Below, piece after piece: positions 3,001 through 44,895 of a stretch of 64,000 nucleotides of DNA. This stretch comes from Amoebophrya sp. A120 (Eukaryota; Protista; Dinoflagellata): the NCBI GenBank assembly GCA_905178155.1, contig CAJINV010000002.1, positions 434,376 through 498,375 on the forward strand. Direction: 5' to 3'. The position numbers and the translations under genes are program-made. Numbering within the stretch: the first letter of the stretch is position 1; each line of letters begins with the position of its first letter. The notes under the pieces were generated by a model. That model saw only the letters and a program-made list of their open reading frames with translations. It had not been told where the DNA came from and searched no databases.

Positions 3001-6000
3001 TTGCATGACCCATGATGTCTGTGATGTGATGCATGCCCTAGCATAACAGATTTTTTGAGGGCTTCTTGATGCCTATTCCGCATGACAAATGCCCTCTCCG
3101 CGTAGGAAAAATTACATTCCCATTGCTGCTCATCCAATACAGATATTTTTGGAATCCAAATGCAGCAGCACAAGTTGCATTCTTCCAGACCCAGACATTT
3201 TTTCATTTGATATTGTAGCCGGTTCCGAAGTCATACTCGCCGGCAGATATGGGAATGTCAGGATCGAAATCGACAAAATCGAAAAATTTGTGATGCATAA
3301 AATCGATACCAGTTGGAGCCCAGTTTGTAAGTGGTGCATGACAGATTTTGCCGCTACCTAAATCCAGTTTGTCATGCTGTTTAGGCAAAGAAGACTGCTC
3401 CTGTCGTGCTACTCTGGCAGCGCATTGCATACCCCTAGCCAGGCTTACAATCGGTCTCATTTGCCTGCCCGCCAATACAGGTCTTCAGTGCCCTACATTT
3501 TCTGCATCGCAAATTTTTCGATTTTGTCGATTTCGATCCTGACACATCCATAGCAGAAGGGTAAAAGTTGTAATTCATCTTGACTCGACGTCCAGCACCA
3601 ACAGATCCTGGTCCTGCACCCGCGACTCCCCCCGCATTATAGTTGCTGTCGGTCGTCGTGTAAAAACCTTCGTAATCTTTGTACAACCCAGCACTTGTAC
3701 CGCTACTGCAAGAACCACTTCCACCACCGCCGCTGCCGGCCTGGCTTGCTGTCACCACCACGGCTGTTCCATTATACATAGTTGCACTATCGCTGAAAAT
3801 AGCACTTGATAAATCGATAGATTTCTTCGGGTGCAAATTCTGCTCCCGGAGTTGTGAGAGGAAGGATTTGGTCTTGGACAAGAGCGCAGATGACTTCCCG
3901 TTTCTTTGCGTCTCCATAGAAGTACTACTGCAGCCGGCTTCATCAAAATCTTCGTCCTCGTCATCTGAAGATGGCACTCGGTTGTTGAAAATGTTATCCG
4001 CAGTTTTTTTCACGTCCAGCGCCGTGCTGTGCGCGCGACTGAGGGCGGGATGCAGGAGTTTACTTTCACGCGCCGGATGAACAACTTGTGGCCCGGATTT
4101 CGACTTTCGTTGCGAAGCACGTACGTCGCCCCGACGATCTTCGGCCCCTTTGTCCTCGACAGTAGTTACAGTTCTATCACGACCCTGGTGTGCTGCGACG
4201 TTGGAGTTGCTACTGCACTGGCTAGTAGTGTAGTCCACCTGCTGGTGCTTCGGTTTGCAGCTCACGTTGGCAGAAGTTGTACCAGCAGAAGGGTGCTCCT
4301 TCTGCTCGATGAGCTCCTGCTGCTGCTCGTCTTCACATGTTGTCAGCACCACTACACCTTGTGTAGTCCTCATACTGCGGCGAGCAGGATCAGAAATAGC
4401 ACACGGCATCAGCGGCCCACCGGAGCTAAAGCTTCCCTGATTGTCTTGTTGTTGCCAGCTGGTTTCAATTTTTGGCGCTTCAGCTGCTGAAAACACCAGA
4501 TCCGAGGCGACCTTTGCTCTAGTCGCCTTTTGTTCTTCTTGTTCTTCTTTTCCAGCTGTGCGGCCGTCGTTGTTCTTTGCAGTACTCTCGGTATCGTCCT
4601 CGCGGGAAGAACGGTTTGAAGGTAGAGCACGGAGGTCTTCTGTCTTGTTCCCCGCCGATAGGTCCTTATTTTTACACTCAACTTCTTCCGTCACGGCTAC
4701 TGTACTAGACCTTCCCTCCTCCGGTACAACTACGCTGATAATACTATTCGACGTAACTACCCGAGGTACAACGCTTGTTTGAGCTGCTTCCAGTGAGGAT
4801 ATTAACGGAAGAAACGGGGACTGCATCATTGATGTCCCTGCACCTCCTGTTCCTGCGTAAGAAAAGTAACCCTTTCCCGGGCTCGGGCTCGGGGTTTGTC
4901 CGATGGTGGGAAAACTCCTGTCACTTTTCAGCACCGCTGGGGTTGCGACGGGTGTGTACGCGGGATCAGACGCTCGTTGATGTGCAGGTGTCGTCGACAT
5001 GATAGACGCACCTCCGGGACTGCCATGCAGCGAAGCACTTAACATCAAGTTGCGACAACTCGGCGACGCGAGAACTTGTTGCTGATACAGCGGAAGCACC
5101 CCTGGTATAATAGCTGGTCCTTGCGAAGGCGTGGAGCAAGACGATCCCGGTCCTAAAATTGTTCCTGCTGGAAAGCAAGAACTCATAGAGCTACTATTCA
5201 AACCGTAGCCAGCGCCAATCTGTGACAGACAAAATTCTGCACTTGTAGATACGGAAATCCGTCCTGTACTGGCGAATTCTGCTAGAAGTTTTGAAGCGTG
5301 GGGATTTCGCGGAGTTGCCGTAGTCGGATGTTCTTGTTGGGCTGTGGTTATTTCATTCCGCTGCGGATCTTCATTTTGCGTAGTAGGAGATGTTACAGCT
5401 ATAGTGTTGTTCATCGCAATAGCATTACCCGTTGTGCTGGCTCGCTTGTCTAGTATTTCATCTTCAACAGCGCCGCTCTCCTGCTTTACAACCTCACACG
5501 GTTGCTCCTCCTCTACAGTTGCTGCTGGTTTCGCTACATCAGAAGCTTTTGGAAAGCACGAAGCGTCCGTTTCGGCTTGTTCCACCTGCTGTTGCTCATG
5601 GGCCACCAAGACATCATTGTTCAATACAGTGGCGTGGTCACATTGGTCCTGAGCGGCCTTCGTAGACGTGGTTTTCTCCGAGCTTGCATCGCTGCCTTTT
5701 GCAACGGTGCGCTGCAGATTTAAATCGTCCAATGGCTGTTCTTCCGCGACCTTATTCTGACCTTCTGGGGCGGGATGACCATGATCAGGGGCCGATGCAG
5801 TAATTGTTTCCTCTTCATCAAGAATCTCAGCATCATCCTTGTTCGACGCTTTCATCTTGTTCATTTCCGCTTCACCAGAGGATGAACCTTCCTTCGGTAG
5901 TTCTTGTCCCTGCTCTTCTTCCTCCTCAACGTAGTTCCCAGCGGCTTCGTCCAAAAGCCTCTTCTCTGCGCTGTAGTTCGCGCTCGGCATGACCATTTCG

Positions 6001-8582
6001 TCTAGCAAATTCCGAGGTCCTCGATAAAAAACAACCTCGCCGCTGATGTTTCTCGTATGCATTGTGGTGTAACAGCCGCGCTCAAAAGGCGAGCACATGG
6101 CGGACGACGGGGTGCCGTTGCCTACGGAGTGGGGGGAGTAGGCCGCCGCGTGCTGCTGGTTGTAGTAGTTTTGGTAAGAAGTATGGTCGTGTAGTTGCTG
6201 CTGATGCAGTTGTGCCATGGCAGTCGTGGGGGAAGCCGCCGCGAAATGATTCACCAGAGACAGGCCACTCGAAGACGACGTCGAAGACGTTTGCTGCATA
6301 TCCTCAAACGACCCTGATATCGCCATCGAGTTGTGGTTGTGCTCGTAGCTGTAGTTATTTGTGTTGCCAAAATTGTCATGCTGGAATGAAATGGCACTCA
6401 TTGCCGTTTCCAAATAACCTGCTTGATGTTCCCCGCGAGGCGTGCCGGTACTGGTCGCGAAAGTGAACGTCTTACTGATACAAGAACTGCCGGTGCTATG
6501 TAATACGCCGCCGTGGCTGTGGTCATCGTCAACATGGGCCGCAACTTTGTTACAACCGGCTGCGGAGCCAGAGCAAGCTGCTGTTGCCGCCGGCTCAGGC
6601 AGGTACACACCGCCCTGCGTTGTACTAGAAGAAGCTGTGTCGGCGGCGGCTGATGCATTTGTATCTCCTCCTACACGGCTAGTACAGCTTGCAGAACTAC
6701 CACTGTAGTCTTCGTGGCCTGCACTGTGAAGAAACTCGTATTGATGTTCCTCGTTGTAAAAATTTTCGCAGCTGTTGCTCTGGTGGTCACCATGATGATG
6801 ATACCAAGAGTTGTTGTATCCAGCACAAGAACTTCGGTCATGATTCCCACCATGACTATCAAATGCAAAAATGTCTGGGTCTGGAAGAATGCAAGTTTGT
6901 CATGCTTGTCTGGCATGACTCTTGAACCTGTCATGCACGTTACCCAAGAGCCCCACTTTGCTGTCATGCAGAAACGCAGTTTGTCATGCAGAATAGGCAA
7001 CACCTAGAAGCTCAAAAGCTTGTCATGCTGAGCCAGCACTTGTGGCCTCTTCATGATACGCCACCCAGCATCACAAGTTTCCAGACCCAGACATTTTTAC
7101 AATCCATAATGACCGAAGGTGTTGACCGATTGCGCTGATGATCCCGACGATGATTCAGGGTTGTTGTTGGCGTAAAAATGCTCCTGGTGTCCTCGGTGCT
7201 GGAAATCATTTGTCCTGCTCCGGTTAAATAAACCACTATAGCCGCGGCCACTGAGTAGTCTACCTGCTGCTGGTGCACCACCGCCCGAGTCTGTCACTGT
7301 CACACCTGCTGTGTCTGTGTCAACATTGTCGCGGTCGTCATTTCGTGCCGCGACCTGGTCACCATGCGCCGAATTATTCGAATTCTGTTCTTCCATGAAC
7401 GGACTCAAAGTGAATTCCCGATTCTCGTGCAAGTGATGCGGTGTACTGGGAAAAGTGGCGGAGAGGTCCAACACTCGCTGATAGTTATCGTCCTCCATAT
7501 CGTGACTGCTTTTGTCACCAGACGCAGGAAAGCTTCTAGACAGCATGTCGTGGCTGTCCTCGGCTTCTTGCTGGGCTGCTAGTGGTGCCTGGGAGATGGT
7601 ATATGTTTTTTGTAATTTTATTTTTTCCACCGGACCTGCCCGGGCCTGCTTTTTATTCAAGAATAACGAGTGATGATCATCGTCAATTTATTGCAATAAC
7701 AGCGGTTCCTAAATCGTGGGTCGCAGGAGACAAAGCTCTTTTCTGTTTCTAATCAACTCAGCATCGCAACGTCAAAATAACCTGATCGTAGCCCTGCTGT
7801 GAAAAATAGCTCGTCCTCTCCCCCTCCACTCTCGCCTGCGTATGCGCATGCCCCGCCGGCCGCCTATGAAGATCATACTCCTGAAATTCATACCCGCAAG
7901 AACCGCCACTGCTAGAAGTACTACTTCCCCATGGGAAATGATGATGATGAAGACTTCGGTGTTGTAGTTGCTCCGCCTGCTGTACTTGCCGCGCTTGCGG
8001 AACGAACTCGACCGCGTCGGAGTTCAATCTGTTCAAACTAGTACTAGGCTTCAACGTCGAATAAAATTCCTCACTACTTCCCGCCCCTACTACAACTTCT
8101 TCTCCGCGAGTATGTAGTTCTTGCGCCGGCTCTTCAGCAGGTGTATAATGTTCCTGCGACGGCAAGGTTACACTAATCTTCGTTCCCTCAGCATTATAGC
8201 CACCTGTCTGATGCGGACCACGATGTTGACCACGACCCGTGCTGCTGCGTGCTTCTTTACCAATAAAACCAGCAGAATTGATAGTAGAATCAGGCACGCC
8301 GTCAGCCTTGCTTCTATTCCCGCCTTCGGGAACTTCGCCGTCGCCAACCGTGGCCGACGTGCTGGCCTGCGCCTTATTCTTTCCTTTCTTCTTGCCCATT
8401 CTGGTGTCTACTTCACCGGTGCGTGGGGATCGCCTTGACGCACTATCTTCTAGTGAAGAAGAAGATGAAGTAGATGATTGCTTTTTCTCCTTTTCCGGAT
8501 AGCTCTGCTCGCCAACCGTGGCGGAACGGGGCAGTTTCGGAAGGTGTATGTTACGCGGCTTACTTCCGGGTCTGGTCCGCAT
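1..8582 (-). CDS. Very large (>2,100 aa) low-complexity/disordered protein, multi-exon, 3' end runs off window start
   Basis: ORFs 7758..8582, 7097..7660, 3435..6608 and 1893..3206 plus an open frame 1007->1 join in frame. Removed: GT-AG intron 7589-7781, introners 6857-7108, 3248-3552, 2946-3212 (each plus one TSD) and GT-AG intron 1008-1964. S/T/Q/E/G-rich, no recognisable domain; start codon uncertain. Confidence 0.75.
1006..1963. mobile_element. ~0.96-kb non-autonomous TIR element (MITE-like) forming an intron
   Basis: ~50-bp imperfect TIR gtactaagtggaattttgcaggaaacgggaaaattgaaaaaaattgcccc / ggggagcaatttttttcaaaattcctgtttcctgcaaaattcccgttagtac. Minus-strand GT...AG 1964-1008 restores the host frame. 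Confidence 0.75.
2946..3212. mobile_element. Introner family A (TIR core AAATGTCTGGGTCTGGAA)
   Basis: TAT...ATA ends, TSD TTGTA; removal gives ...GTGYN-NFEQQ in frame. Confidence 0.92.
3248..3552. mobile_element. Introner family C (TIR TATGGGAATGTCAGGATCGAAATCG)
   Basis: Long TIR, TSD GCAGA; removal gives YPSA-GEYD in frame; second copy at 22359. Confidence 0.9.
6857..7108. mobile_element. Introner family A
   Basis: TSD ATGAC; removal gives FGH-GGNHD in frame. Confidence 0.92.
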
Positions 8583-11396
8583 ATCTGGATTTGTGTTTTT
8601 GAAATTGAAAGGTTGGAGTCCGCTTCTTCTGAATATAGTAGTGGCTGCTCGATAGTTCTTCTTGTACCGCTACGACCGGGCTCTCTGGGTCGTTGATCAG
8701 TACCGCGACGAGGCAGTCGCAGTGGCTGGATTCCTGATGATGTTATTTCTTCAATACTTCACAAGGACTCAGCGAAGAGTCGGCTGCGTCAATATCCCTT
8801 GTTATTTCATCATCCGTGTTGTACTGCTATAGCGTTCTTTTTCGCTCCGGACGACACAGATGCGTAGCCTTCTTCGCAACATGTTGGAGCTGAAACACTG
8901 GGGGATGAAGTGCTGCCGGTCCACCTTCCTCGATGTTGAATTGGGCCTTCAAATCCAGCCTATGTAAAGATGAAGATGTCTGCTATGGTGTTCCTTTACC
9001 TCGTCTTGGTTCTTTCTCGTTGCTACTGCGAGCAGTGTGCAACAAGACCGGCGGGGAGAGAATGTCTTGTAAAGTTTGTCAGAAAAAGTTCAGGCCCTAC
9101 TTGTTCGAGATGTAGTTTTATTTCTTGCTTGCGGAAAAAGAAAAACAGAGTCGGGATCAAAATTGTGGTCCCCTAGGCCCGAGGTGAGTCTTTGCGAAAC
9201 CTTGACGCCAAGGCGAGATGACTCCTTCGTGCGGCTAGGAATACCACTTTCAGGCTACGAGCGGACAATCGTTTGATGAAAGGGCACAACAGCTCCTCAC
9301 TTCTTGTACACGTATGTCCAGCCGATTAGAGCACGACAAAGAAGCGTCTTACTGATGTACTTGCTAAAACGTGTACGTGTGAAAGGCCGGCGGAGCCTTT
9401 CCTGGTCTAATTCCTAGAAAAGTTATGTAGAGATGAAATTGCTTTTATGCTTGTTCAGCATCAAGCAGATCTGTTTCTACCACAACGCCTGTCCTTTCTC
9501 GTCTTAACAATGTTTATTTTCAGTCGAGTGGTAACAAACTCGCAATTTAGCATGAAAGCCAGGTACTAGGGTCAAGAATGCGTAAACTAATCAGAGAAAG
9601 AAAAAAAGAACCACCCCCGTGCGCGGTGAACGTGAACCACAACCATATCATAGTGACATCGAATGAGCTGCGCCGAGATCCAGATCTGCGTTTGTAGTGA
9701 CCAACACAAAATAAATGCCGCACAAAATTGATCCGCTTTCGCTTGATGATAATGAAGAGCCACTAAAAATGATGCTGGCGACATACTGATCGTCTTCACG
9801 CTGCACGAAAATAAGTACTCTACCAAATCTCAACTACCCACTGCAGCACAGACCGCCCTAGCTACACCACCATTTATCACAGACACCTCCAGGGAAGTTT
9901 CTTTTATCTATCAATCGCACGGCGGGCATAATACACACATCATCCACACGGCAACTGTTCTATAGTCCCACATCTGGTTAGAGGAAAAGATCCTTCGTTC
10001 CGTGGTCATTTTGTGTGTCGCAATTACTTCTTACAAGAATCAGATGAAAACAATAACGCACGGATCGTATCGCAGTATAGTAAGAGTAGATCTTGATCAT
10101 GATCCTCCATCCTGCTGCGCGCGGCGGTATTATTTGTAGTGACCGTATGAGTTTGCCTCTTGATCTTCAACCTCGCCGGTGGCTCAAAGGGCCGCCACTG
10201 TCCCTAGAAAAACTCAATTGCTTGTGGTTCGTGTCAACAATATTACGCACCACACGAAGCACGACTTTTTTCTGCCACTGATAGAAGAGTTGTAAACATA
10301 AGTCATCTCCTGATGTGTGAAGGGCCCGTGTCGCGGCTTAGCAAATAGAAAGTCCAACTTCGTCCTCCGCTATGTTCCCAACGACTGTTTTTTCTTGTCA
10401 AGAAATTATCTGCAAAACCTTAAAAGCACAGGTCGAAACAATCAGAAAGTCAACAGATCATGAACCTTTGCGTTTAAGCACAGAAAACTGAGAGAAGTAC
10501 AGCGGCTTTCGTACTATGTTCTTCCGTAAAATTCTATGTCAAGAAAACCAAAACATTTTCATCTCCGGTATTACTATTAATTCGCTATGCATCTTACATG
10601 TAGTGCGAGTTGTGCCACAATCTTTTTTCCTGCAACAGCTCAAGTCTAAAAAATAGAGTAATCGGCTCCAGGAATGATCCGTGCAAACAGAAATACAGCA
10701 AAAGCAAAATTAATATAGACAAGATTTCGACATCAAAGAAGAAGAACTACTACACTACAAGGCACATCAGTAGGAGTTTTCTCAGTATCGTGTTGACAAC
10801 ATCACGAGCTAGTGCAGCTATGATATTTTTACGCCGAAGAAGTAGCTTCGTGCCCACTTGGAAGAGAACGAGGAGCGCCTTCAACTTCAGTTGCATATCG
10901 CTACAACTCAAGTATGCAGCATCACGATGTTTGTGCCTACACGGATGAAAAAGTCAAGAAGAAGAGGCAAAGTGATCAATTTGCATAGACCCCGCCCGCC
11001 TTCTCGAATAAATTTTATCACTCGTGCGCCTAACAAGAAAGCACGTTCGAGAGAATATGTGTTAGTGCAACCAGAATGATAGACAAATTCGAGACAAAAA
11101 AGAGAGGACTTCTGTGGTCGCACGTACTATGAAAGGGCACAACAGCGCCAGCGAGGAACCATTTTTCTATCGACGCCTAATTTACAACTTTCAACAAGAA
11201 AGATGTGAATAGCAGTAGCTGCTTTAAGCAAAACCTCGCTTTTTACGACAAGCGTTTAAATTCGTAGTAGAAAAGGAAACAACACAATCAAAAAATGGAA
11301 TATCCTTCAAGATTTGCAAACAGACATGTAGAGCGCTTCAAGACCACACGGTTGGAAACTTTATCCTTTTTTTTGCAAACGTTAACAGACGACTTT

Positions 11397-12170: not shown

Positions 12171-15100
12171 TGGCACAGTTTGCTCGCATATGAACTGCAA
12201 AAGTATCGTACTAGTAGTAATTGCAATACAAATTAGCTCAGCATGACAAATGGAATTTGTCATGCTGTTTTGCCTTGGGGTGGAGATTTGTAATGCATGA
12301 TTGCAATTACTACGAGTACGATACTTTTGCACAGGATATCGCAACAGTTTCTGCTTCAACTCCGTTTCCAAATTGTCGCAATTTTGGTTCTATGAACTGC
12401 AAAAGTATCGTACTAGTATAAATCGCATGACAAAAAATTTCCTCAGAATGGAAAATGGAGTTTGTCATGCTGATTTACCTTGGGAACCTCCAGATTTGTC
12501 ATGCATATCTGCGATTAGTACGGTTACGATGCTTTTGCATTTGATAGGTTCTCCAGTTTTTCTCTTTCCAATTTCTTTTCCCTTTCCAATTCGGAAATTC
12601 TCTCCCGTTCTTGTTTCTCCCGAGCTGTTTCCTCTTGCAGTTCCAACTGCTTTATGCATTGCAAATATGTCTGGGTCTGGAAACTTGTAATGCTGCGTTG
12701 GGAATTATAGTGAGTGCTCTGTAATGCGCAGCCAAGCATGAGAAATATCTGCGTTTCGTTGTGTTGCGTTTTTCGCATGACAAACTGCGTTTTCGCATGA
12801 CAGACAAAAGGGTCTCTTCTTGGACACGCATCACAAACTTTTTGGTCATCCCAGACAAGCATGACAAATCGCGCAATCTTCCAGACCCAGACATTTTTGC
12901 ATTTGATATGCTTTTTATACACTCGTGCCTTCTCCGCCTGAATTTGCAGCAACAACTTCTCCCGAATCCGGCCGAATTTCTGTTGCAGCAGTTGCAGCTC
13001 GGTGTTTGCATTCTCCTCTTCGACTTCCTCCTTTTCGTCCTGATCGATCGTTCGCGGGTCGCGGGTGAGCAGCTGTTTTTTTTTATTTTCATTTGCACAT
13101 TTGTGCCATGCATGACAAATTCAGTTTTTATTGCAAATTTCTGCATGACAGATCAACACATCTTCATCCTCGCTTCAATTTTTCTACCTTGTCCTTGAAA
13201 TTCCCCACTTCCTCTTCCAATTCAGCCTTATGAACTGCAAAAGTATCGTATTCGTATAAATGTAATTACAAATTTCTTCAGCATGAGATAATAAAATTTG
13301 TAATGCTGATTGACCTTAGGAGAAACATTTGTAATGCATGACTGCAATTACTACGAGTAGGATACTTTTGCACAGGATAAGCCTTCTCGGTTTCCATTTC
13401 CTTCAAAATCCCCTTGTATTCCTTGATCTTCTCACTCCTTCGCCTCTCCAACGTGAGCAATTTCTGTTCCTCCTTAAACAGTATGAAATGCAATAGAACT
13501 AACGTACTAGGTAGTACAAATCGCATTACACTGCTTGCATCTACAGCATTTCAAGTGTGTTTATTTATTCATCGTCTTATCTTCATCTTCATCGTCATCT
13601 TGTGGATCGTCGTATTGGAACAAAGGGAAAACCCGTCGGAGAGCGAAAAACCTCAGCGCATATCGCTGGAAAATGTTCGTTTCATATTTTTCAATTTTTC
13701 GTTTTTCACATGAGAATTTTGAGAGCATCTAGTAACGGTTCAAAAAACAGCACGGCGAGATTATGAAAGTCCAAAAATTGTTCTTGCTGTTGCACCCTAC
13801 CGCGACGTACTTTGAGCGGTGCTTCTCGACTCTATGTTCCTGCATCGATGAAGAGATTTTTGCTTTCAAAAATTGAAGAAGTTACGACATTGGGGTCGTC
13901 GGGTTTGAAGATGTTTGTAGTGTGTTTGCGAAAAGTTGCGAAGTGTGCGCCAAGTTGCCGATCTAGCATTACAAATTCGCAAGATCGTCTTCATCTTCAT
14001 CATCTTCATCTCTTCTTCTTCTTTTGATTTCAACGAAAATAAAATAACCATCTTGTCGACAACATCACTTGCATTGCAACATCAAACGTCACAAGCTTCT
14101 GCACGTTACCATCTGCGTGCGTAAAACTTCCAAGACCACTCGCAGATCAGATCAACATCAAACCACTACTCGCGTGTACAGCCGTGCTACGAACAACATC
14201 CGCGTCGGGAAAGTGCAAAAAGCTCCGGGGGTTGAATCGCTGCCCACACTTGCCGGGGAGGTTATATCGCTTGCATGAACATCGTGTTTTACAATCTCAA
14301 ACAAACCCCACTCAGGGCGGTGAGATCGGCAGGTGGTTGAGGTTTCTCCGGAAGCAGGCCCGGATATACCGCGCCCGATCCCCCTGGTTCGCAGGCCACT
14401 GCTGCCCGTTGTTGTCGTTCTGCACTGCTGCGTTTTTCCGGTCGTCGTGGATGCGGCCGAGGATGGTAGTCAGACGCGCCACAGTGAGGGTTTGGAGCTT
14501 CTCCACGATGCTGTCGTTCCCCGCCGCGGCGAAATGGGAGTCGTTTCGCGCCGCAGGAGACATAATCGAGAAAATCCATCCTTTCTGGTAGTCATCGTCC
14601 ACATTCCCGGCACCCCAGTGCACGTCAACGCCGTCAATCCGCTGCACGATGGGTGCGCCGTTGATACCTGCTTGGGGGGCAGGCTGTAGGTTTTGGTTTG
14701 CGGCGGGGGCTCCACCAGCACCACCTCCTGCTGCGCCACCTCCTGCGCCAACACCTCCTGCTCCAAAACCTCCTGCTCCACCACCTCCTGCTCCACCACC
14801 TGCGCCTCCGGCAACACCTGCACCTCCACCAGCCCCTCCACCAGCGAATCCCTGTTGTTGCTGAAACGGGCCTTGTTGCTGGAAAGGAGCTTGCTGCTGG
14901 AACGGGCCTTGTTGCTGGAACGGGGGCTGTTGCTGGAAGGGAAATTGTTGCTGAAACGGAGCGGCTTGTTGCTGGAACGGAACTTGTTGTTGGAAAGGAC
15001 CAGGTTGCGGGAACTGCTGCTGGAGAGGAAACTGCTGTTGCTGGTTGTACTGCGGGAAGGGTTGGTTTTGGTACTGGGCGGGGTACTGCGGAACGGGTTG

Positions 15101-18100
15101 ATTTTGGTATTGGGCATGGGGGTGCATCATGTTGTGATTGTGCATGTAGTTCGGCATCATGTGTTGATTCGGGTTCTGGTAGTACATCTGGGCGTTGGGG
15201 GGTCCAAACTGTGCCGGCATGTTTGCATAATTCGGGACACCCTGGCTGAACATCATCGTGTTGATCTGCTGCTGCTGGTTCTGTTGTTGCTGTTGCATCT
15301 GCTGCAACAGCCTTAGCACCTCGGAACTTTCTTCCTTCTCTTTGTTCGCAACAACATCGGGTTTGTTCAGACCATAGACTGACGCCAGACCGTCCGAAAT
15401 CGCCTTCCCCATGTACACCCCCTTCCGCTCTTCCGCTTCCCGCGCCTTCTTCTCCTGCTCCTTTTCTTTGGCTTCGCGGACCAACCGCTCAAGCTCAAGA
15501 ATGCGACACTCCTCACGCACGTGTTCGTCGCGTCCCTTGCCGGGCTTCAGGAGTTCGTGGTCTTTCGGTGCCATCTTGGATCTCAGTCGTGCGTCGTTGT
15601 TGTTTGCGTTGTTCTTTTTGTTACGATGTGGAAGAAGATAGTCTAGCTCATAAGTTGCCTCAAAGGTTTTTGGTGCTACTACGCATGCCTTGATCAATGC
15701 GATTAGGAGGTTGAAAACTCGAGACCGTTCAAACAAAACCTTGCGGCTGCATCGGATTATTGTCAAAATTGTCTGTAGTCGAAAGCCTCGCTGTTGCCAC
15801 TGTTTCAGATCGTGAAAGACATGGAGGGCCGTCAATACATCTGTGGAACTCATTCGCTTGGGATCTTCTGTGTCATCGGTGTTTTTCTTTTGGAGGAATT
15901 TGGCAGTGATTGCTTGCGCGATGTTGTTGAACCTGCTGAAGAAAACTGAGCGGTAGTACTCTACGTCGGTCATGTCCCGAAACCGCGCGCCTAGCGGCTT
16001 AAGGACTGGCCTCGTGCTTACTTCGACACGTGACCCGGGCCCCGTGCTCTCTATGTCTGTGGCAAGGTTTAGCCACCTCATTGACAGCGGTATTGCCTTG
16101 CTGCGGATCATTCTGTCGTCGCTCGTTGCTTGCTCCAGGATTCTGTCGACTTCTACTTCTACCCCGTCGTAGATGTCCTCGACAATTTCGGCGAGGCAGG
16201 GTCGGCAGAAGCAGGTCGTTAAGTTCGCGGAATCATCGACGAAACGCTCCATCGCTAACTCGCTCGGCTTTACTTTCCCGGTTCGGAAGGCGTGGTCCTC
16301 TGCTGCTGTCATCGCGACGGAGCAGGCAGCTTTGGACGGTATCCCGCCGATCGGTGTGCCCTTTTCCGGGTCCTGTCGCAGAACCAAGGCGCTGCCGAGT
16401 GTGCTGAATCTCAGCGCTGTGATGTTGAACAGTAAAAATTCCAAGTTCTCCGCTTCTTCGTGTTCGCACCTTGGTAGCGTCTTGATGTAATCAATTCTGT
16501 CGCGCATCAGCTGGACCCTGACACGCTCGAAAAAGACTACGGCATCGACTACCAGGCCCGTGGCGTCCGGTTTCTCTGTTCCACACCGCACGCACTTGCC
16601 TGTGCACTTTTTCAACTTTTGCGCCTTTGCCTGGAACGAACTTGCCGCCTCGGTCAGCGAGCAATTCTCTTTGCCTTTCGTCAGCACCTTCTTCAGCGTC
16701 TTCTCCACTTGCTGCACGCACTTGCGCTGCGTCGCCCGGTTTCGTCCTGTGATGGCCCGCACCTGGGAAACTATTTTGCGAAAAAGTTTCTCCTCCGGCA
16801 CATCTTTGAAAATGACGGCGCTGTCGTTCTGCACCACCAAGTTCTTGCCCTTCGGCAGGATGTACACGTAGGCCAGTTGCGTCATCTCCCCGAGTTTGTG
16901 TTCCTTCCGTCGCCCCTCGGCACTGTTCCACTGCTGGATCAAGCTGTTTACCGCTTTCAGCGCTTCCGCCTCTGTCATCGGCACGACTTCAAGATTTTTC
17001 TCGCGGAGGATAATCCGGCAACACATTTGCTGGTAGAGATACCTGTCGACGAAAAGACCCAACTCTTTCCACTTGTCCACCTGCACCAACACCCGCCCCG
17101 CTTGTAACTGTTTCTGTGCGTGCTCTTCTGCTTCTCGCAGCGGGTGCGCTTCTTGCTCTCGCCTGTACTGCTTCCGGCTCTGCTTTACTTGCACTCGCTT
17201 GTTGCATGCTCTCTGCAACAGCCGCGTTTGCGTTGCTACGTGCTTCACGGACTCCGGTCCGGGTGGTAGTGGGTCGGTCAGATCAAACGGGGCCGCTTCC
17301 ATTTTTACCTCCTTGAAGTTCACTGCTTGGCTTACGCTGGTGATCGCCTTGGCCGCGCCTACTGCTGTTCGCGTGTAGTAGCGCATCCGTGGGGCCATTA
17401 CCCTTCGCAGCGTGATCTTCTCGGCCAGGTATGTGCGGATTCGTGGGCGTGATTCCGCCAGGATTGCGCCCCGGACCTTTGCGAGCTCCTGTCGCTCCCA
17501 GCGGTACCGCCACACTGCTACAATGCAGGCGCGACTTGGTGCGCCCCTGCTGTTCAGCAGTATGTTGACTTTGCTGCGTGCGCGGAGCTTTTCCTTGCCC
17601 AGCACGATGCTGCCGCCCTCGACTATCTCCCGCAGGTCGTACTCTGGGAACTCGCTGCGTCGGTGGAGAAGGAAGAGGAGCCGCACCACCTTCGTGTACT
17701 TCATGCCCAAAAACTTTGCGAGCAAGAAGTAGTTCGGCTGTGCGTAGATGTTGAGCGGGCCCTCCGTTCGTCTCTCCGTTTGCGTTTTCGTGTACAGCTC
17801 GTGGTAGCTGCTTGCTGTGTCGTCTTTGCTCCGGAACTTCTGTTCGTAGTACTGGAGAAGCCAGGTTGTCGCCGGCCCTTCCAGTTCTACGCGTCTCTGC
17901 CACTGCGGGGGGCGCCGTCGTTGTCGTGTTTTTGCTTTTTGTTCTGTCGCCCGGCTTCCCGCGGTAAGCCTCTCTAGCCACTCCGACTCGTCGCGGCCTT
18001 CTTCTTCTGTCCCGCCTTCGCCTTTTTCGTAGATGCCCGTCTTGTTTAGTGGCGGCTGGAAGATTCTTACAAGGGCGGCCTCCGTCTTCCGCGCGTCCCT

Positions 18101-20063
18101 TACGTCAGCGCAGATTCTGATGGCCAGGATGCAGACAATGGCGCGCCGGTACTTTTCCGGCTTCCACCCTGACTGCCTCGTGCCCCGCTGGTGTTCTTCG
18201 AAACGGCGCCGGAGGTCATCGGTTGACCCGATGTAGTAGCTGCCACAGTGGTCCCAATATGCGTAGACCACGCCGTGTAGCTTCTGCAGTTTGCGGTCTT
18301 TCTGCTCTTGTTTTTCTTGCCTGTTTTTCTCGGACACGTGCCGCGCTGCCTCCTGCAATTGCTCAAAGAAGGGGAATTCCGAAGGGTCGAACAGCTTCGA
18401 GTATTCCCGCAGCCTTTTGTTGATCTTCTTCGCCCACTGTGCTCGCTTCCATGGCTTTGCGCCAATCTGTCCCGCAGCAGCTCCGAGTACTTTTATGCGA
18501 TCGATTGCTGTCTGCTGTCCTTGTTCTAGTGAAAGCGGCATTTCTTCCGCGACGGTTTCCACTGCGTTGTAGATGGTGAAGGTGGAGAAGATGGCGAATA
18601 CGTAGAAGAAGAAGACGCGGGTGGCAGTCGGTCGGCTTCTGCTCCGTTGCCCACGACTTTTTACTTCTGTCTCCGTGCTTCTACTTGTTTGTTTTTGTTG
18701 CTGCATTTTTGTCGAGGTATTTCTAACCCGGCACGCCGTTCAGTTCCTTGCTGGATCCGCGGAAGGTGTCGGCGTACTACTCTGCTTGCATCTACAGCAT
18801 TTCAAGTGTGTTTATTTATTCATCGTCTTATCTTCATCTTCATCGTCATCTTGTGGATCGTCGTATTGGAACAAAGGGAAAACCCGTCGGAGAGCGAAAA
18901 ACCTCAGCGCATATCGCTGGAAAATGTTCGTTTCATATTTTTCAATTTTTCGTTTTTCACATGAGAATTTTGAGAGCATCTAGTAACGGTTCATTACAAT
19001 TTTTTCAGCGTGACGAATGACACCTGTAATGCTGATTCACCTGGGGAAATAGATTTGTCATGCACGCCTGCGATTAGTAGGAGTACGATGTTTTTGCATT
19101 AGATAAACAGCGTCAAGTCCAACGTTCCGTTCAGCGCCGTCCACGATTTCGAATTTTTCAGCGTATCCTGTGCAAAAGTATCGCACTCGTACTAATCGCA
19201 GTCATGCATTACAAATCTTTTTCTTGAGGTAGATCCGCATTACAAATTCAATTTGTATTGCTGGGCTAATTTGTATTGCAATTTATACGTAGTACGATGC
19301 TTATTTTGCGGTGCATACACCGTTTCCTTCGCTAGTTTCTCCTTCCAAAAAGCGATTTCTTTCACTATTTTCTCATTCTCCTGCTTCATGATCGCTACCG
19401 CCTGCTTCCGGTTGTTGTATGCATTGCAAAATTACAGTATCGCACTCGTATAAATGCATTACAAATTTCCTCAGCATGAGAGTTCAAATTTGTAAGGCGG
19501 ATTTGCCTTAACAAAGAGATTTGTAATGCATGATTGCAATACGAGTACGATACTTTTCCACAGGATATGTTGTCTTCTTTGTCCATGTCGAGTTCCAGTT
19601 GCTTCAGGTCCTGTTGCGCGTTTGTCACCTGGCGGGTCTTCTCTCCGAGTAACGCGAAGGATTTGGAGACCAGAGACCACTTGGCCAAAACGAAGTTTTC
19701 GGCTTTGCTGTTTGTTGCGGAAGCGGTGGCTTCCCGCGATTCGGTGATGGCGTCAATGTCGATTTGACGGTTTTGCTGTTGTATGCATTGCAAAAGCATC
19801 GTACTAGTATAAAATGCATTGCAAATTTTTTTAAGAAAAACAATTTGTCATGCTATTTCAGGTAGAAAGTTGGATTTGTCATGGTGCATATCTGCAATTA
19901 GTACGAGTACGATACTTTTGCACAGGATATGTTGTAAAGTAGATTCGGTCGTGGAGCTGGCTGTTGCGGTGGCTGTTTGCGAAATAGCTTTCGCGAAAAA
20001 CAGAAAGTGGGATGAGCAAAGAGCCGCTACGGTGGGAAAAAACACCGCCATCTTTTTCGTCAT
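12160..20063 (-). CDS. Putative secreted coiled-coil protein (signal peptide, E/K/Q/L-rich)
   Basis: MTKKMAVFFPTVAALCSSHFLFFAKA... to ...KQKLLRANCAIDA*. Frame restored by removing 8 introners (one containing the 5.46-kb retroelement) and a probable GT-AG intron at ~13073-13187. Confidence 0.78.
12189..12338. mobile_element. Introner family B (TIR core TGCAAAAGTATCGTACT)
   Basis: TSD TCGCA; empty site visible in paralogous copies (~24090 and ~25745: tttgctcgcaccagtttc). Confidence 0.93.
12391..12546. mobile_element. Introner family B
   Basis: TSD GGTTC. Confidence 0.92.
12653..12908. mobile_element. Introner family A
   Basis: TSD TGCTT; empty site caactgctttttat at ~24241 and ~22671. Confidence 0.93.
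13229..13379. mobile_element. Introner family B
   Basis: TSD AGCCT. Confidence 0.92.
13531..13742 (-). repeat. 3' terminal direct repeat (pseudo-LTR) of retroelement
   Basis: Appears identical to 18782-18993; AATAAATAAA about 30 nt from its 3' end on the minus strand. Confidence 0.93.
14312..18706 (-). CDS. GIY-YIG endonuclease - reverse transcriptase polyprotein with C-terminal Q/P/F- and Gly-rich region
   Basis: GVVYAYWDHCGSYYIGSTDDLRRRFEEH...E...LN (GIY-YIG); RT motifs VVDAVVFFE, GTPIGGIPS, RFVDD; intronless 1464 aa. Confidence 0.88.
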   Translation of the reverse strand: MQQQKQTSRSTETEVKSRGQRSRSRPTATRVFFFYVFAIFSTFTIYNAVETVAEEMPLSLEQGQQTAIDRIKVLGAAAGQIGAKPWKRAQWAKKINKRLREYSKLFDPSEFPFFEQLQEAARHVSEKNRQEKQEQKDRKLQKLHGVVYAYWDHCGSYYIGSTDDLRRRFEEHQRGTRQSGWKPEKYRRAIVCILAIRICADVRDARKTEAALVRIFQPPLNKTGIYEKGEGGTEEEGRDESEWLERLTAGSRATEQKAKTRQRRRPPQWQRRVELEGPATTWLLQYYEQKFRSKDDTASSYHELYTKTQTERRTEGPLNIYAQPNYFLLAKFLGMKYTKVVRLLFLLHRRSEFPEYDLREIVEGGSIVLGKEKLRARSKVNILLNSRGAPSRACIVAVWRYRWERQELAKVRGAILAESRPRIRTYLAEKITLRRVMAPRMRYYTRTAVGAAKAITSVSQAVNFKEVKMEAAPFDLTDPLPPGPESVKHVATQTRLLQRACNKRVQVKQSRKQYRREQEAHPLREAEEHAQKQLQAGRVLVQVDKWKELGLFVDRYLYQQMCCRIILREKNLEVVPMTEAEALKAVNSLIQQWNSAEGRRKEHKLGEMTQLAYVYILPKGKNLVVQNDSAVIFKDVPEEKLFRKIVSQVRAITGRNRATQRKCVQQVEKTLKKVLTKGKENCSLTEAASSFQAKAQKLKKCTGKCVRCGTEKPDATGLVVDAVVFFERVRVQLMRDRIDYIKTLPRCEHEEAENLEFLLFNITALRFSTLGSALVLRQDPEKGTPIGGIPSKAACSVAMTAAEDHAFRTGKVKPSELAMERFVDDSANLTTCFCRPCLAEIVEDIYDGVEVEVDRILEQATSDDRMIRSKAIPLSMRWLNLATDIESTGPGSRVEVSTRPVLKPLGARFRDMTDVEYYRSVFFSRFNNIAQAITAKFLQKKNTDDTEDPKRMSSTDVLTALHVFHDLKQWQQRGFRLQTILTIIRCSRKVLFERSRVFNLLIALIKACVVAPKTFEATYELDYLLPHRNKKNNANNNDARLRSKMAPKDHELLKPGKGRDEHVREECRILELERLVREAKEKEQEKKAREAEERKGVYMGKAISDGLASVYGLNKPDVVANKEKEESSEVLRLLQQMQQQQQNQQQQINTMMFSQGVPNYANMPAQFGPPNAQMYYQNPNQHMMPNYMHNHNMMHPHAQYQNQPVPQYPAQYQNQPFPQYNQQQQFPLQQQFPQPGPFQQQVPFQQQAAPFQQQFPFQQQPPFQQQGPFQQQAPFQQQGPFQQQQGFAGGGAGGGAGVAGGAGGGAGGGGAGGFGAGGVGAGGGAAGGGAGGAPAANQNLQPAPQAGINGAPIVQRIDGVDVHWGAGNVDDDYQKGWIFSIMSPAARNDSHFAAAGNDSIVEKLQTLTVARLTTILGRIHDDRKNAAVQNDNNGQQWPANQGDRARYIRACFRRNLNHLPISPP
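18782..18993 (-). repeat. 5' terminal direct repeat (pseudo-LTR) of retroelement
   Basis: Copy of 13531-13742. Confidence 0.93.
19164..19317. mobile_element. Introner family B
   Basis: TSD CAGCG/CACCG (1 mismatch). Confidence 0.88.
19418..19567. mobile_element. Introner family B
   Basis: TSD TGTTG. Confidence 0.92.
19782..19929. mobile_element. Introner family B
   Basis: TSD TGTTG. Confidence 0.92.
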
Positions 20064-43165: not shown

Positions 43166-44895
43166 TTTTCTTTTTGTGCCGTGACAGAACCAAAAAAAAT
43201 AAAAGTGTAGATTTGGAAAAAATTGCTGTGATGCTTGATGGTTGTAGTTTGAATTGATAGATACTTGCCAGTCCTCTACAAAAATCAAACGAAATTGCAG
43301 CTGGTAGTTTTATTCGGTACTAGCTCACTCCTGCTAGCTTCTCCTCTTTGTTCTTTAAATATGAGTGGGACGGGTGTAAGATTACTCTTGGTTTTTTTTC
43401 GCAATTGGGGTAAGTACAAGTAGTTGTTTTTGAACAAGATCTTCAAGATATTCTACAGTGAATGTGGTAAGATTCAATGCGTTCATCCATAGTAGACGAC
43501 AATTCTTCAAAATTCCTCAAAGAGCGGCTCAAATTAGTAGTATCACAACGTACAATTTGTTATTGTTGATCGCCGATTAACCATAACCATAAGTGATGCG
43601 CTCCTGTTTTCCAGGTTTGGAAGAAGGGTGGTAGGAATTGCATTTTGACACACAGGGCGGCAGCAACTACTTACTTCCGGTGCTGTATTCTGGATCCGCC
43701 CTGCACGACGATCTGAGGCTCCCATTTGCATTTTTGACATTGACTCTTGGCACAAGAACAGTAATTTTAACCGACCACTTCGAGCTTTTGCGATTGTCCC
43801 ACGCATTTTTCAGGATCGCGTAACACAAAATTTGAATTTCCTATTTCAGAATTTCGCACTTTATTGGGGTACGAACGATCCAACGATCCAGCACCTGGAC
43901 GTGATCTGTTTCATTCATGTGTACAACTCGACGATTTCTATATGTCAAACTCGACTACAAAATTTGTGTGATCACGCTGTTGAAAGAACTTGATAGCGAC
44001 TGAACGTTTATTGCGCTGCTCCGTCGCGGCCAAGGAGGATCTTCTTGTAGTCTATTACTATTTCGCTCAAGGATTTAATATTTTCGATTGATCGTTGTAA
44101 CGGTTTGTTACTGTTTCTACTAAGACCAAAGCGCTTCGGTTTCTTCAAAAATCCGTCTAACTTTCTACCTGCGAGGACATAAAAGCGCGCTACCGATTCG
44201 GGTAAGGCTAAAAATGGATCAACAGCTGCTCATCTTCGCTGGATTTGGTTTTTTGCGTCTTCCTCCAGCTACGCGTGTAATCGGGCATGGTTGAGGCTCA
44301 GACAACTTTGTTTGATCCAGGATTCATCCAGCCTTGTTGGCCCCGTTGATTCTCGACGACCTGTGATTACTACGAGCGCACGAAGGTCTTCAGATTTTCG
44401 TGTCACGACGTGGTAAGGTGATACGTATTTGCGCATCGTTACTGCTATCGATTTTTGCCGTTGCGCAACTTCATATGTATGATGCTGTGATCAGCGCCCG
44501 TGCCCCTCGGCCGCCGAGAGGCACTGATTCCTCGGCGTGATTTTTCTAGGCCGAGACTACTAGGCCTAAAATTTTTGTATAGGATGACAGTTATGCTATT
44601 TAATCAAGAAAGTCAAAGTATTCAACATCAACAGTTACTCGCGAAACGCAAAAATAGAAGGCAGGTCGTGCTGCCCAGGTCAAAAAATACAAATTTATTT
44701 TACGAGCGTGCTGGTTTTTTTGGCAAAATCTCTTTCATGCGCGTAGCTGAGACAGCTAATGAATAATTCACCCTCAACGGTTCTGCGTCGGCGATCAATC
44801 CAAGTACTCATTTTTGCATTCTACTTCATCTACGACCAAGAAAATACTTCTATACTGTACGACAAATGTTACAACAGCCGAAGACGTCGCGCTTC

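Follow-up and report, generated by a model that had tools for sequence, protein, structure and literature searches.

The stretch of Amoebophrya sp. A120 DNA that was analysed (64,000 nucleotides, hereafter the window) contains what we regard, with moderate confidence, as a Penelope-like retrotransposon that has an N-terminal GIY-YIG endonuclease and a telomerase-like reverse transcriptase (RT), that was likely inserted by nicking and target-primed reverse transcription into a 156-bp hairpin introner, and that is predicted to leave the host mRNA when this introner is excised. The locus is made up of the following features, with positions given relative to the window.

13380..13474, minus strand: host exon downstream of the split introner, in a coiled-coil gene (X3 contig record 3, no differences; open frame)
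13477..13481 (left) and 19106-19110 (right), no strand: AACAG direct repeat flanking the introner (from the sequence)
13482..13530, minus strand: left part of the split introner, 49 bp, ending in GCATTACA (six-sister alignment; nhmmer, 13480-13530 matching profile positions 4-47)
13531..13742, minus strand: 3' (downstream) terminal repeat, a pseudo-LTR of 212 bp, every base equal to 18782-18993
13743..14311, minus strand: unique part of the 3' UTR, with an exact GCATTACAAATT copy at 13966-13977
14312..18706, minus strand: single ORF of 1464 codons without interruption, ATG at 18706, stop at 14312-14314
14705..15322, minus strand: low-complexity C-terminal extension of the ORF, Q/P/M-rich and then G-rich (ORF translation)
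15665..17398, minus strand: telomerase-like RT, P0001 residues 448-1025 (profile, AlphaFold model and fold searches)
18056..18274, minus strand: GIY-YIG endonuclease domain, P0001 residues 156-228 (Pfam PF01541)
18707..18781, minus strand: leader of the full-length unit, 75 nt, beginning with AGTAGTACGCC right after the upstream repeat
18782..18993, minus strand: 5' (upstream) terminal repeat (pseudo-LTR), 212 bp, interpreted as a partial tandem copy truncated at its 5' end
18994..19105, minus strand: TTACA copy (18994-18998) and right part of the split introner, 107 bp (nhmmer, 18990-19105 matching profile positions 39-155)
19104..19158, minus strand: host exon upstream of the split introner (joints 13474 to 19104 and 19158 to 19318 in X3 contig record 3; open frame)

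The element spans 13531-18993 on the minus strand (5,463 bp) and is bounded by direct repeats (13531-13742 and 18782-18993) that show 0 differences in 212 bp. To the left of the repeat, mismatches start only at 13530, 13526 and 13524; with this ragged edge included, the repeat measures 221 nt at 99% or 216 nt at 99.5% identity. As in the pseudo-LTRs of Penelope-like elements (PLEs), the upstream one of the two identical copies adjoins the leader of the unit. A TTACA duplication flanks the element (13526-13530 and 18994-18998), and removal of the element plus one TTACA rebuilds the empty site as ...AAATCGCATTACAATTTTTTCAGC...; in sense orientation, the element ends in ...GATGCAAGCAG. The minus-strand frame 14312-18739 runs uninterrupted for 1475 codons between stops, its first ATG being at 18706. 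The ORF has the catalytic D in RT motif A, VDD in motif C and the residues of the nuclease. The first-pass annotation had described a 5.46-kb element with identical 212-bp repeats and a TTACA duplication, all of which are present in the sequence, and had deduced recent activity from the repeats and the intact ORF. The element is indeed young and unbroken, the identity of the terminal repeats indicating a recent insertion. Neither BLASTN with the element nor TBLASTN with 21 family proteins found a second copy or fragment in the window. The C-terminal extension was also considered as a homologue of the P0002 tail, and this was rejected because the likeness was compositional only.

Nuclease and RT are encoded in one ORF, with the GIY-YIG domain at residues 156-228 and the RT motifs at 555-890. 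The nuclease matched PF01541 with an E-value of 1.4e-5 (25.7 bits against a cut-off of 22.6), and the family alignment (A1) shows GIY, YIG, R, H, E and N in place, with neither CCHH nor an upstream Cys linker. The RT motifs are DK at 555, LVVDAVVFF (motif A) at 728, GTPIGGIPS (motif B) at about 795 and RFVDD (motif C) at 832, followed by the thumb. The RT was absent from the Pfam results for the whole ORF and three sub-pieces, phmmer searches of PDB sequences with the ORF and with the RT core gave low-complexity matches or none, and a word-indexed protein search with the protein or alignment A1 gave no match. In A1, the blocks DK, DA.SFFE, GTPIGG..S, RYVDD and WLD are conserved and stand in RT order. 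The A1 profile found 12 PDB sequences at E<=10, and 8 of the 12, including all of the best five, were RTs aligned at motifs A to C, among them the GsI-IIC RT with a marginal E-value (0.0012, on the order of 1e-3). AlphaFold modelling of the RT with an 18-row alignment gave a pLDDT of 83.0 and a pTM of 0.79 (the model made without an alignment, with a pLDDT of 36, was unusable). When this model was used for fold searches, TERT occupied all of ranks 1-16 in Foldseek (best E 3.6e-9) and all of ranks 1-14 in VIA-align (Z 13.7-16.8 over 321-459 residues, rmsd 4.3-8.0, model range 129-706), an R2 RT leading the non-TERT structures in the latter (Z 13.4). From fold similarity rather than from a tree, the RT is predicted to be of the PLE/telomerase type; because Pfam and single-sequence searches miss it and the profile E-values are marginal, this call leans mainly on the predicted structure. 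The pairing of GIY-YIG with RT that had been noted earlier is supported by Pfam for the nuclease and by profile and structure for the RT, which is not readable from Pfam.

Among 1.84 billion representatives searched with HMMER, 19 scored as relatives at E<=1e-3, of which 14 reached <=1e-10 and 4 reached <=1e-30; the best of them is 35% identical, and the family comes from Amoebophrya and marine metagenomes. A GIY-YIG domain near the N-terminus was scored in 4 of the 19, and a weak RVT_1 match (E 0.0037) in one. The viral-contig scan yielded 66 stretches matching the pattern and 0 relatives, and the metagenome scan with P0003 as the query yielded one locus. The relative in L001 encodes a protein 28% identical and is flanked by direct repeats of 314 bp at 99.4% identity.

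The rejoined introner (13482-13530 plus 18999-19105) is 156 bp long and aligns end to end with six neighbouring family-B introns; it is a diverged copy, 75-81% identical to its sisters. Since the alignment runs across the site without a gap, the element is nested in a pre-existing introner; this continuity and the AACAG copies confirm the earlier proposal that a 156-bp family B introner with an AACAG target site duplication had been split. Terminal inverted repeats forming a hairpin, a direct repeat at the borders, non-canonical borders and many copies were all found, as expected of an Amoebophrya-type introner, and the introner profile (nhmmer) had 54 matches in the window counting both strands, covering 6.4% of it. 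The sister introners fold as long hairpins with paired ends (-63.2 kcal/mol in one example vs -23.8 for shuffles), and the fold of the host introner is weak (-34.0 vs -27.8 +/- 3.5 for shuffles). The rebuilt empty site places the insertion within the motif shared by the introners, as had been suggested, and this motif is far above chance in the window: GCATTACA occurs 59 times vs 2.1 expected and GCATBACAA 139 times vs 2.3 expected, with three to four copies of the GCATTACAA(ATT) motif per family-B introner.

In the mechanism that we propose, the plus strand would be nicked after GCATTACA (13530), and the nicked 3' end would prime cDNA synthesis from the 3' end of the element RNA (...GCAAGCAG). 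A second nick 5 bp away would give rise to the TTACA duplication, and the upstream 212-bp repeat would represent a 5'-truncated partial tandem copy from the same event, as in other PLEs. As the outer inverted repeats are intact, the introner ends could still pair and direct non-canonical excision around the 5.5-kb loop.

The insertion site is best explained by tolerance, and a nuclease preference for TTACA/GCATTACAA is unnecessary to account for the data. Introns occupy 1476 of 2423 nt (61%) of the host gene span examined, and an insertion in them does not alter the protein; 5-bp sites lying wholly in GCAT[TGC]ACA make up 6.7% of the host gene's introns and 1.2% of the window; with such a motif share and so much intron, tolerance of intronic insertions alone would often give the picture seen here. 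It is also conceivable, as the first-pass annotation had inferred, and in our view rather unlikely, that the element homes to introners, with its nuclease recognising GCATTACAA(ATT) and the introners being preferred as splice-protected safe havens. The sole insertion examined does fall exactly within the motif, small as the above shares are, and the 3' UTR of the element has an exact 12-nt motif copy (13966-13977), a word with 24 copies in the window vs 0 expected, the other 23 being in introners; in addition, 6 of the 9 nt that open the full-length unit are the same in the 3' flank. Published accounts of PLEs with an N-terminal nuclease include a strong microsatellite bias, and some related families insert into one 28S rDNA site (PMC8557442). 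Among the A120 introner families described, fam3, fam38 and fam135 have retroelement ORFs between introner-type inverted repeats, in several near-identical copies (PMC12130899), which repeated nesting would explain. However, the case is a single copy noticed after the fact, for which a conditional probability of 0.067 falls short of significance and would be raised by degenerate motif copies, and selection alone enriches intronic insertions in a gene that is 61% intron. Moreover, the L001 relative, the one with readable flanks, sits in a GT-rich tandem array without an introner-like repeat at the site, some 2 kb from the closest dispersed inverted-repeat element, in a contig with 0 copies of GCATBACAA, and the internal motif copy in the 3' UTR is a 14-nt match (E 0.034) that may be due to chance. 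That this copy is a captured introner fragment was rejected, the match being only 14 nt. Slightly more doubtful still is the wider proposal that a Syndiniales lineage of endonuclease-first PLEs homes to GCATTACAAATT, a protein-binding-type motif in MITE-like introners, has its own copy in the 3' UTR and spreads as a passenger of non-canonical introns excised at any length, as a parasite of a parasite. Homing, if true, would also account for the puzzling published introner families of Amoebophrya in which inverted repeats enclose retroelement ORFs.

The RNA data bear on whether the insert is removed. In RNA run X3, contig record 3 (639 nt, depth 295) contains the joint 13474 to 19104, which skips 5629 positions and has 7 ambiguous letters, together with five neighbouring joints, and its four listed exon pieces are free of differences from the window. 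The exons joined across the insert translate as a single open coiled-coil frame, and of the 9 host-gene intron joints seen in X3, 8 are without GT..AG ends. Given the 13474 to 19104 joint and the open frame, the host exons are joined precisely across the locus in this run. The first-pass annotation had expected the host gene to stay in frame after excision, which is the case, and had proposed RNA junctions as a check, which the exact exon joint now provides. It is likely that the whole 5.6-kb insert is spliced out of the host mRNA, where we infer that the element-bearing allele was the source of the joint. The raw-read RNA runs X6-X8 gave 85, 1 and 39 reads, all of them partial fits at introner repeats and uninformative on the locus.

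An allele or sub-strain free of the element could also have given rise to the joint, with the element-bearing allele mis-spliced and a recent, possibly deleterious polymorphism. Such an allele could be the source because X3 differs in sample and study from the DNA-like runs and has zero depth over 13908-19024, including the element ORF, and the identical terminal repeats point to a recent insertion. We nevertheless consider this unlikely, because the exon pieces of X3 equal the window and a 246-nt X3 contig (13561-13806) equals the 3' end of the element without a difference, so that the element exists in the X3 organism. Furthermore, the published Amoebophrya introner data sets include intron alignments up to 16-18 kb (PMC12130899), i.e. 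long nested introns are annotated as spliced in Amoebophrya. Far less probable than this is mobilisation of the composite as a unit, in which a family-B introner already with its retroelement would have been moved by the introner's DNA-transposon-like machinery and landed as a 5.6-kb introner. The outer AACAG duplication and the inverted ends are intact, and A120 family 38 is described as having retroelement-like ORFs between inverted repeats in near-identical copies (PMC12130899), but the outer introner has diverged from its sisters whereas the inner repeats are identical, as befits an old introner with a young insertion, and the BLASTN and TBLASTN searches revealed no second composite in the window.

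Splicing of a nested insertion thus remains the favoured reading, and the nested element itself is Penelope-like, since the GIY-YIG domain is accompanied by an RT that profile, model and fold searches find to be telomerase-like. As the nuclease is N-terminal to the RT, the domain order is the permuted one of Naiad/Chlamys, in a very divergent form that is placed by architecture and not by a tree. The Penelope-like identity assigned earlier accordingly stands as regards a GIY-YIG retroelement of the PLE kind, but not as regards a canonical Penelope. Like Naiad and Chlamys, the element is without a hammerhead ribozyme, none being found in 13000-19500 by Rfam at E<=1 (4 sub-threshold matches were to other families), and A1 has no conserved Cys pair within or upstream of the GIY-YIG core, as in Chlamys vs Naiad. 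From the Asp of motif A (732) to motif B (~799) there are about 65 residues, where an insertion-in-fingers domain might lie, and the AlphaFold model has two helices and a hairpin in this interval (model positions 423-470). The third residue of the DK motif is not conserved, being DKW in the window and DKN, DKD, DKG, DKH, DKQ, DKS or DKM in relatives, and the DK column reads GK in 1 of 11 covering A1 rows. No Cys is located between the KR block and GxKY in the window protein and the other long A1 rows, and hence no CxC (zf-CDGSH-like) motif. An element of another class, such as an LTR retrotransposon or a DNA element with a homing-type GIY-YIG gene, is suggested by the LTR-like direct repeats with a 5-bp duplication and by the lack of an RT in Pfam, yet it is highly improbable and its LTR form was rejected, because the ORF gave no Pfam matches to integrase, protease or RNase H (whole or in sub-pieces), the RT fold is telomerase-like and not retroviral, primer-binding-site features are missing where the upstream repeat meets the leader, and the 19 relatives share the architecture.

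PLEs with an N-terminal nuclease, previously described from the green lineage, a slime mould and invertebrates (PMC8557442), thereby gain an alveolate (Syndiniales) lineage; the terms alveolate and dinoflagellate are absent from that paper. Such elements are probably under-counted in protist genomes, because their divergence escapes Pfam-based RT annotation. If the element-bearing allele is spliced, the non-canonical and still unexplained excision of introners tolerates a 35-fold larger intron interior, which would point to recognition of the paired ends alone and make this locus a natural test substrate. Published introner families 'containing' retroelement genes may likewise be nested insertions, and the locus invites a genome-wide comparison that would tell targeting of introners by retroelements from simple persistence in them.

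In Xenopus, the LINE Tx1L has the DNA transposon Tx1D as its insertion target. If homing were true, R2, Utopia and the Tx1 clade would be analogues, as they are described as sparing the host through insertion in repeated dispensable sequence; they differ in having many copies at one target vs a single copy here, and an AP-type or restriction-like nuclease vs GIY-YIG here (PMC4640811). With the Amoebophrya introners described by Farhat et al. (2021, PMC7789003), whose main text contains neither of the terms Penelope and GIY-YIG, the host introner shares end inverted repeats forming a hairpin, a short direct repeat at the borders, non-GT-AG ends and many sisters, except that the present copy holds a 5.46-kb autonomous retroelement. 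The A120 introner families of Gozashti et al. (2025, PMC12130899) have in common with it a retroelement coding sequence framed by introner-type inverted repeats in an annotated intron. According to their descriptions, the ORFs there are Copia/Gypsy-like and were taken as hints on the introner's own origin, whereas the inner element here has its own repeats and duplication, by which nesting is demonstrated; the supplementary table of that study, files 13 and 14 aside, has no row for the Penelope class.

The closest likeness is to Chlamys, the N-terminal GIY-YIG PLEs of green algae, spike mosses and a slime mould (Craig et al., 2021, PMC8557442). From the account of these elements, common features include an N-terminal GIY-YIG without CCHH and without a Cys linker, a KR-rich block after the nuclease, the GxKY and DK motifs, a PLE/TERT-type RT that may be lengthened between motifs A and B, pseudo-LTRs formed by partial tandem insertion, the lack of a canonical hammerhead, a body length inside the reported 3.3-8.2 kb, and accessory C-terminal extensions and internal tandem repeats. 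In contrast to Chlamys, all long members of the present family are without CxC, which is reported in all but one Chlamys/Naiad type, and have two other conserved Cys pairs flanking RT motifs A and C; the present sequence has diverged beyond the reach of Pfam RVT_1, the family is hosted by Amoebophrya and by organisms of marine metagenomes, and the target is a transposon motif in an intron rather than a microsatellite. The one exception as to CxC is Physarum_Pp1, likewise a PLE with an N-terminal nuclease, although its nuclease is reported to be reduced and without the R, H, E and N that are present here (PMC8557442). The Naiads of invertebrates share the permuted domain order, the pseudo-LTRs and the lack of a hammerhead, but are described as carrying the CCHH, Cys-linker and DKA motifs, both Cys motifs being missing from the present element (PMC8557442).

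The intron that carries the element in the coiled-coil host gene was found to be a family-B introner interrupted by an insertion with its own repeats and its own short duplication, and the features of the insertion and its gene were located as follows.

Features of the element and its gene (window coordinates)
13531-18993, minus strand: insertion of 5,463 bp, delimited by sequence
13531-13742 and 18782-18993: terminal direct repeats, 212 bp each, with 0 differences between the copies
13526-13530 and 18994-18998: TTACA duplication, directly left and directly right of the element
18739 to 14312, minus strand: open frame without a stop
First ATG at 18706, minus strand: ORF of 1,464 codons
14705-15322, minus strand: low-complexity tail, Q/P/M-rich and then G-rich
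About 16576-16606 and 16195-16216: conserved cysteine pairs of A1, the alignment of the element protein with its relatives

Repeat comparison showed that repeat similarity ended at 13530, 13526 and 13524. Upon removal of the element and one TTACA, a 156-bp introner (13482-13530 plus 18999-19105) was regained with AACAG on either side and an empty site reading ...CGCATTACAATTTT..., and alignment with six family members among the neighbouring introns revealed no gap at the insertion site. The G+C content is 51-59% in the element and 40-42% in the flanks, which are rich in introners. In the window, GCATTACA occurs 59 times (2.1 expected) and GCATBACAA 139 times (2.3 expected). The repeats, TTACA, split introner and motif described in the first-pass annotation were therefore right in every particular checked, and the nesting is unambiguous, since the insertion brings repeats and a duplication of its own and the surrounding introner is continuous across the site. 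The identical repeats (0 of 212 positions different) and the uninterrupted ORF were likewise borne out; together with intact catalytic positions, they indicate that the insertion is recent and that the element, judged from its sequence, is probably active.

The host gene and the element ORF lie on the same strand (minus). Evidence for splicing came from X3, a run kept as contigs whose RNA label is only a guess: a 639-nt contig of depth 295 contained the joints 13072|13188, 13223|13380, 13474|19104, 19158|19318, 19412|19568 and 19776|19930, with 0 differences over the four listed exon pieces, and six such joints in one contig identify it as a spliced transcript. At 13474|19104, 5,629 bases were skipped with 7 ambiguous letters, accounted for by the AACAG repeat and the terminal TA of the introner, so that the proposed TAT...ATA borders are compatible with the joint but are just one of eight equivalent placements. 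Joining the exons gave, as had been predicted, one open coiled-coil frame; it ends with a stop near 12150. Precise joining of the host exons across the locus was thus seen, whereas the allele of origin is inferred; X3 had zero depth across 13908-19024, one of its contigs (13561-13806, 246 nt) was identical to the 3′ end of the element, its sample and study differ from those of the DNA-like runs, and three raw-read RNA runs gave no usable reads at the locus. It is likely that the element-bearing allele is the one spliced, and introner excision apparently still works with the element nested inside. Folding predicted long hairpins with paired ends for the sister introners; the split introner is a weaker hairpin copy, the outer arms of which lie outside the insertion site.

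GT..AG ends were missing in eight of the nine intron joints of the host gene in X3, and introns account for 61% of its span with the element removed. The gene (12184-19929) has nine introns in about 8 kb, and the sole one readable as GT..AG (12386-12546) is also a family-B introner. It was also noticed that a 261-bp intron at 12648-12908 belongs to a different introner family and has a terminal inverted repeat (TATGCATTGCAAATATGTCTGGGTCTGG...) and six GCAT[TGC]ACA-type words, indicating that the motif is not confined to one introner family. In the raw-read run X8, 33 RNA reads join 12271 and 19801 on opposite strands; all reads of X8 fit only partly, so the 33 probably originate elsewhere, at a locus where two introners are inverted relative to each other. 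The parts of Farhat et al. (2021, PMC7789003) used here describe Amoebophrya genomes with a majority of non-GT-AG introns, introners with terminal inverted and short direct repeats, and a very divergent, mostly unassignable proteome; these published hallmarks are present in the window, where none of ten other ORFs of 263-1154 codons (e.g. 3438-6899 and 41126-43309) had a Pfam match at E<=0.001.

The only domain that Pfam recognised in the whole ORF of the element was GIY-YIG (residues 156-228, E 1.4e-5, over the curated cut-off), and no reverse transcriptase (RT) was found in its sub-pieces; single-sequence search of solved structures and a word-indexed protein search found neither an RT nor relatives. 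When 1.84 billion representatives were searched in full with HMMER, 19 relatives were found at E<=1e-3, 14 of them at <=1e-10 and 4 of them at <=1e-30; the best one was 35% identical across 860 residues. Cluster look-up assigned three of them to Amoebophrya sp. AT5.2 and Amoebophrya sp. A120, the remainder coming from ENA, JGI and Logan assemblies. Pfam scored GIY-YIG near the N-terminus in four of the 19, and a weak RVT_1 (E 0.0037, under cut-off) in one, a fragment. In the alignment A1, the block order is GIY and YIG with downstream R, H, E and N positions, a KR-rich block, PLNIY.P.NY.LL.KW (GMKY in the window protein), a DK block, LPY..K.KC, RKI(V/I)S, CxxC, DA.SFFE (RT motif A), GTPIGG..S (motif B), RYVDD (motif C), a second Cys pair and WLD (motif E). 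The RT names were given partly from what we take to be the motifs of Penelope-like elements (PLEs) and telomerase, and partly after the portions of Craig et al. (2021, PMC8557442) used here. Four cysteines are conserved in the family, with CxxC immediately preceding motif A in 11 of 12 rows and Cx2-3C immediately following motif C in all 12; they may form a zinc site in the palm, a feature absent among the motifs described in those portions (PMC8557442). A C-terminal segment of about 110 residues follows the low-complexity tail of the ORF; the tails of two family proteins (P0002 and P0015) are similar in composition, with undetectable sequence homology.

When the A1 profile was compared with all PDB sequences, eight of the 12 entries listed at E<=10, including the best five, were RTs, and these aligned at motifs A to C. 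The top match was the GsI-IIC group II intron RT (E 0.0012), followed by three reverse-transcriptase-domain entries (one also labelled UG15; E about 0.006) and an entry named RNA-directed DNA polymerase (E 0.022). An AlphaFold model of residues 320-1040 built with an 18-row alignment had a mean pLDDT of 83.0 and a pTM of 0.79, the model without alignment being useless (pLDDT 36). Foldseek against PDB placed telomerase reverse transcriptases (TERT) of Candida, human, Tetrahymena, Tribolium and yeast at ranks 1-16 (best E 3.6e-9), followed by DRT2- and DRT9-titled entries and by group II intron, LINE-1 and R2 RTs. In VIA-align, TERT held ranks 1-14 (Z 13.7-16.8, 321-459 residues aligned, rmsd 4.3-8.0), the best other match being R2 RT (Z 13.4), and the match spanned model range 129-706, i.e. 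from before the fingers through the thumb. The combination of GIY-YIG and RT claimed earlier therefore holds by Pfam for the nuclease and by profile and structure, but not by Pfam, for the RT.

The position of the insertion had led to the proposal that the element aims at introners or at their motif. According to the parts of PMC8557442 used here, N-terminal-nuclease PLEs are strongly biased in their choice of target, in one case to a precise rDNA site. An exact GCATTACAAATT lies in the 3′ UTR of the element (13966-13977, plus strand); the window contains this word 24 times (0 expected), and the other 23 copies are in introners. In addition, bases 1-9 of the full-length unit (18773-18781, sense AGTAGTACG) match the 3′ flank at 13522-13530 (TGTAATGCG) at 6/9, a similarity that may reflect a former target site carried along in the tandem junction, or chance. 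However, a single insertion is weak evidence for homing, and no second copy or fragment of the element was found in the window. GCAT[TGC]ACA wholly encloses 1.2% of 5-bp sites window-wide and 6.7% in the introns of this gene, which occupy 1,476 nt of the examined gene span of 2,423 nt; with exon hits lethal in a compact genome, survival alone would leave many insertions in introners and about 1/15 of these in the motif. Moreover, the only relative with readable flanks, on the metagenome contig L001 (protein 28% identical, 314-bp terminal repeats 99.4% identical), is located within an array of GT-rich tandem units of roughly 300 bp each; the dispersed inverted-repeat element closest to it is about 2 kb away, and GCATBACAA is nowhere on that contig. 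This setting matches the preference for repeats and microsatellites described for Chlamys (PMC8557442, in part), not introner homing, which we consider unlikely.

The copy of GCATTACAAATT at 13966-13977 is set in a small palindrome (GATCT...AGATC), and its origin as a captured introner fragment was ruled out, the introner-profile match being just 14 nt. On L001, a 20-bp-period minisatellite and three GT-rich units of ~300 bp lie directly upstream of the related element (8003-8862 and 8757-9663), and the first about 117 bp of such a unit reappear directly downstream (14444-14560), so that this element was apparently inserted into the array. A dispersed ~130-bp repeat without GCATBACAA (222-333, 1575-1702, 7253-7324 and 16882-17032, some copies inverted) is possibly that organism's MITE or introner family.

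To the observed anatomy, domains and exon joint, a proposed route of insertion can be added. The GIY-YIG nuclease would nick the plus strand after GCATTACA, and the freed 3′ end would prime reverse transcription of the element RNA from ...GCAAGCAG; a second nick 5 bp off would create the TTACA duplication, and a 5′-truncated 212-bp copy placed in tandem upstream would form a pseudo-LTR. The host would then go on excising the introner, now 5.6 kb, via its intact paired ends.

A TERT-like RT, a GIY-YIG nuclease and partial-tandem terminal repeats, with no integrase, protease or RNase H found in the element and no hammerhead ribozyme found by Rfam, together define a Penelope-like element, as far as model and sequence indicate. 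Based on its N-terminal nuclease, it has the permuted arrangement of Naiad and Chlamys (PLE types with an N-terminal nuclease), assigned by domain order, and is more like Chlamys than Naiad because the CCHH motif and Cys linker are absent. It differs from the published Naiad/Chlamys description in lacking the CxC motif between nuclease and RT, in having two other conserved Cys pairs flanking the motif A-C stretch, and in an RT too divergent for RVT_1. Alveolates and dinoflagellates are not mentioned in Craig et al. (2021, PMC8557442), the words 'Penelope' and 'GIY-YIG' are absent from the main text of Farhat et al. (2021, PMC7789003), and no report of Penelope-like, Naiad or Chlamys elements in dinoflagellates was found in the literature collection searched; the element is thus a highly divergent N-terminal-nuclease PLE in a lineage for which none was found reported.

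In the parts of Gozashti et al. (2025, PMC12130899) used here, A120 introner families with Copia/Gypsy-like ORFs between DNA-transposon-type inverted repeats are described, such as fam3 (3,852 copies, RVT_2 and integrase matches, alignments up to 16 kb), and are treated as a puzzle over introner origin; none of the supplementary table rows searched is assigned to a Penelope class. The novelty of the present locus is tempered, since published annotations already imply that long introners filled with TEs exist. Compared with those families (PMC12130899, in part), the inner element here shows unambiguous nesting, which suggests a plainer reading of the ORF-containing introner families of A120.
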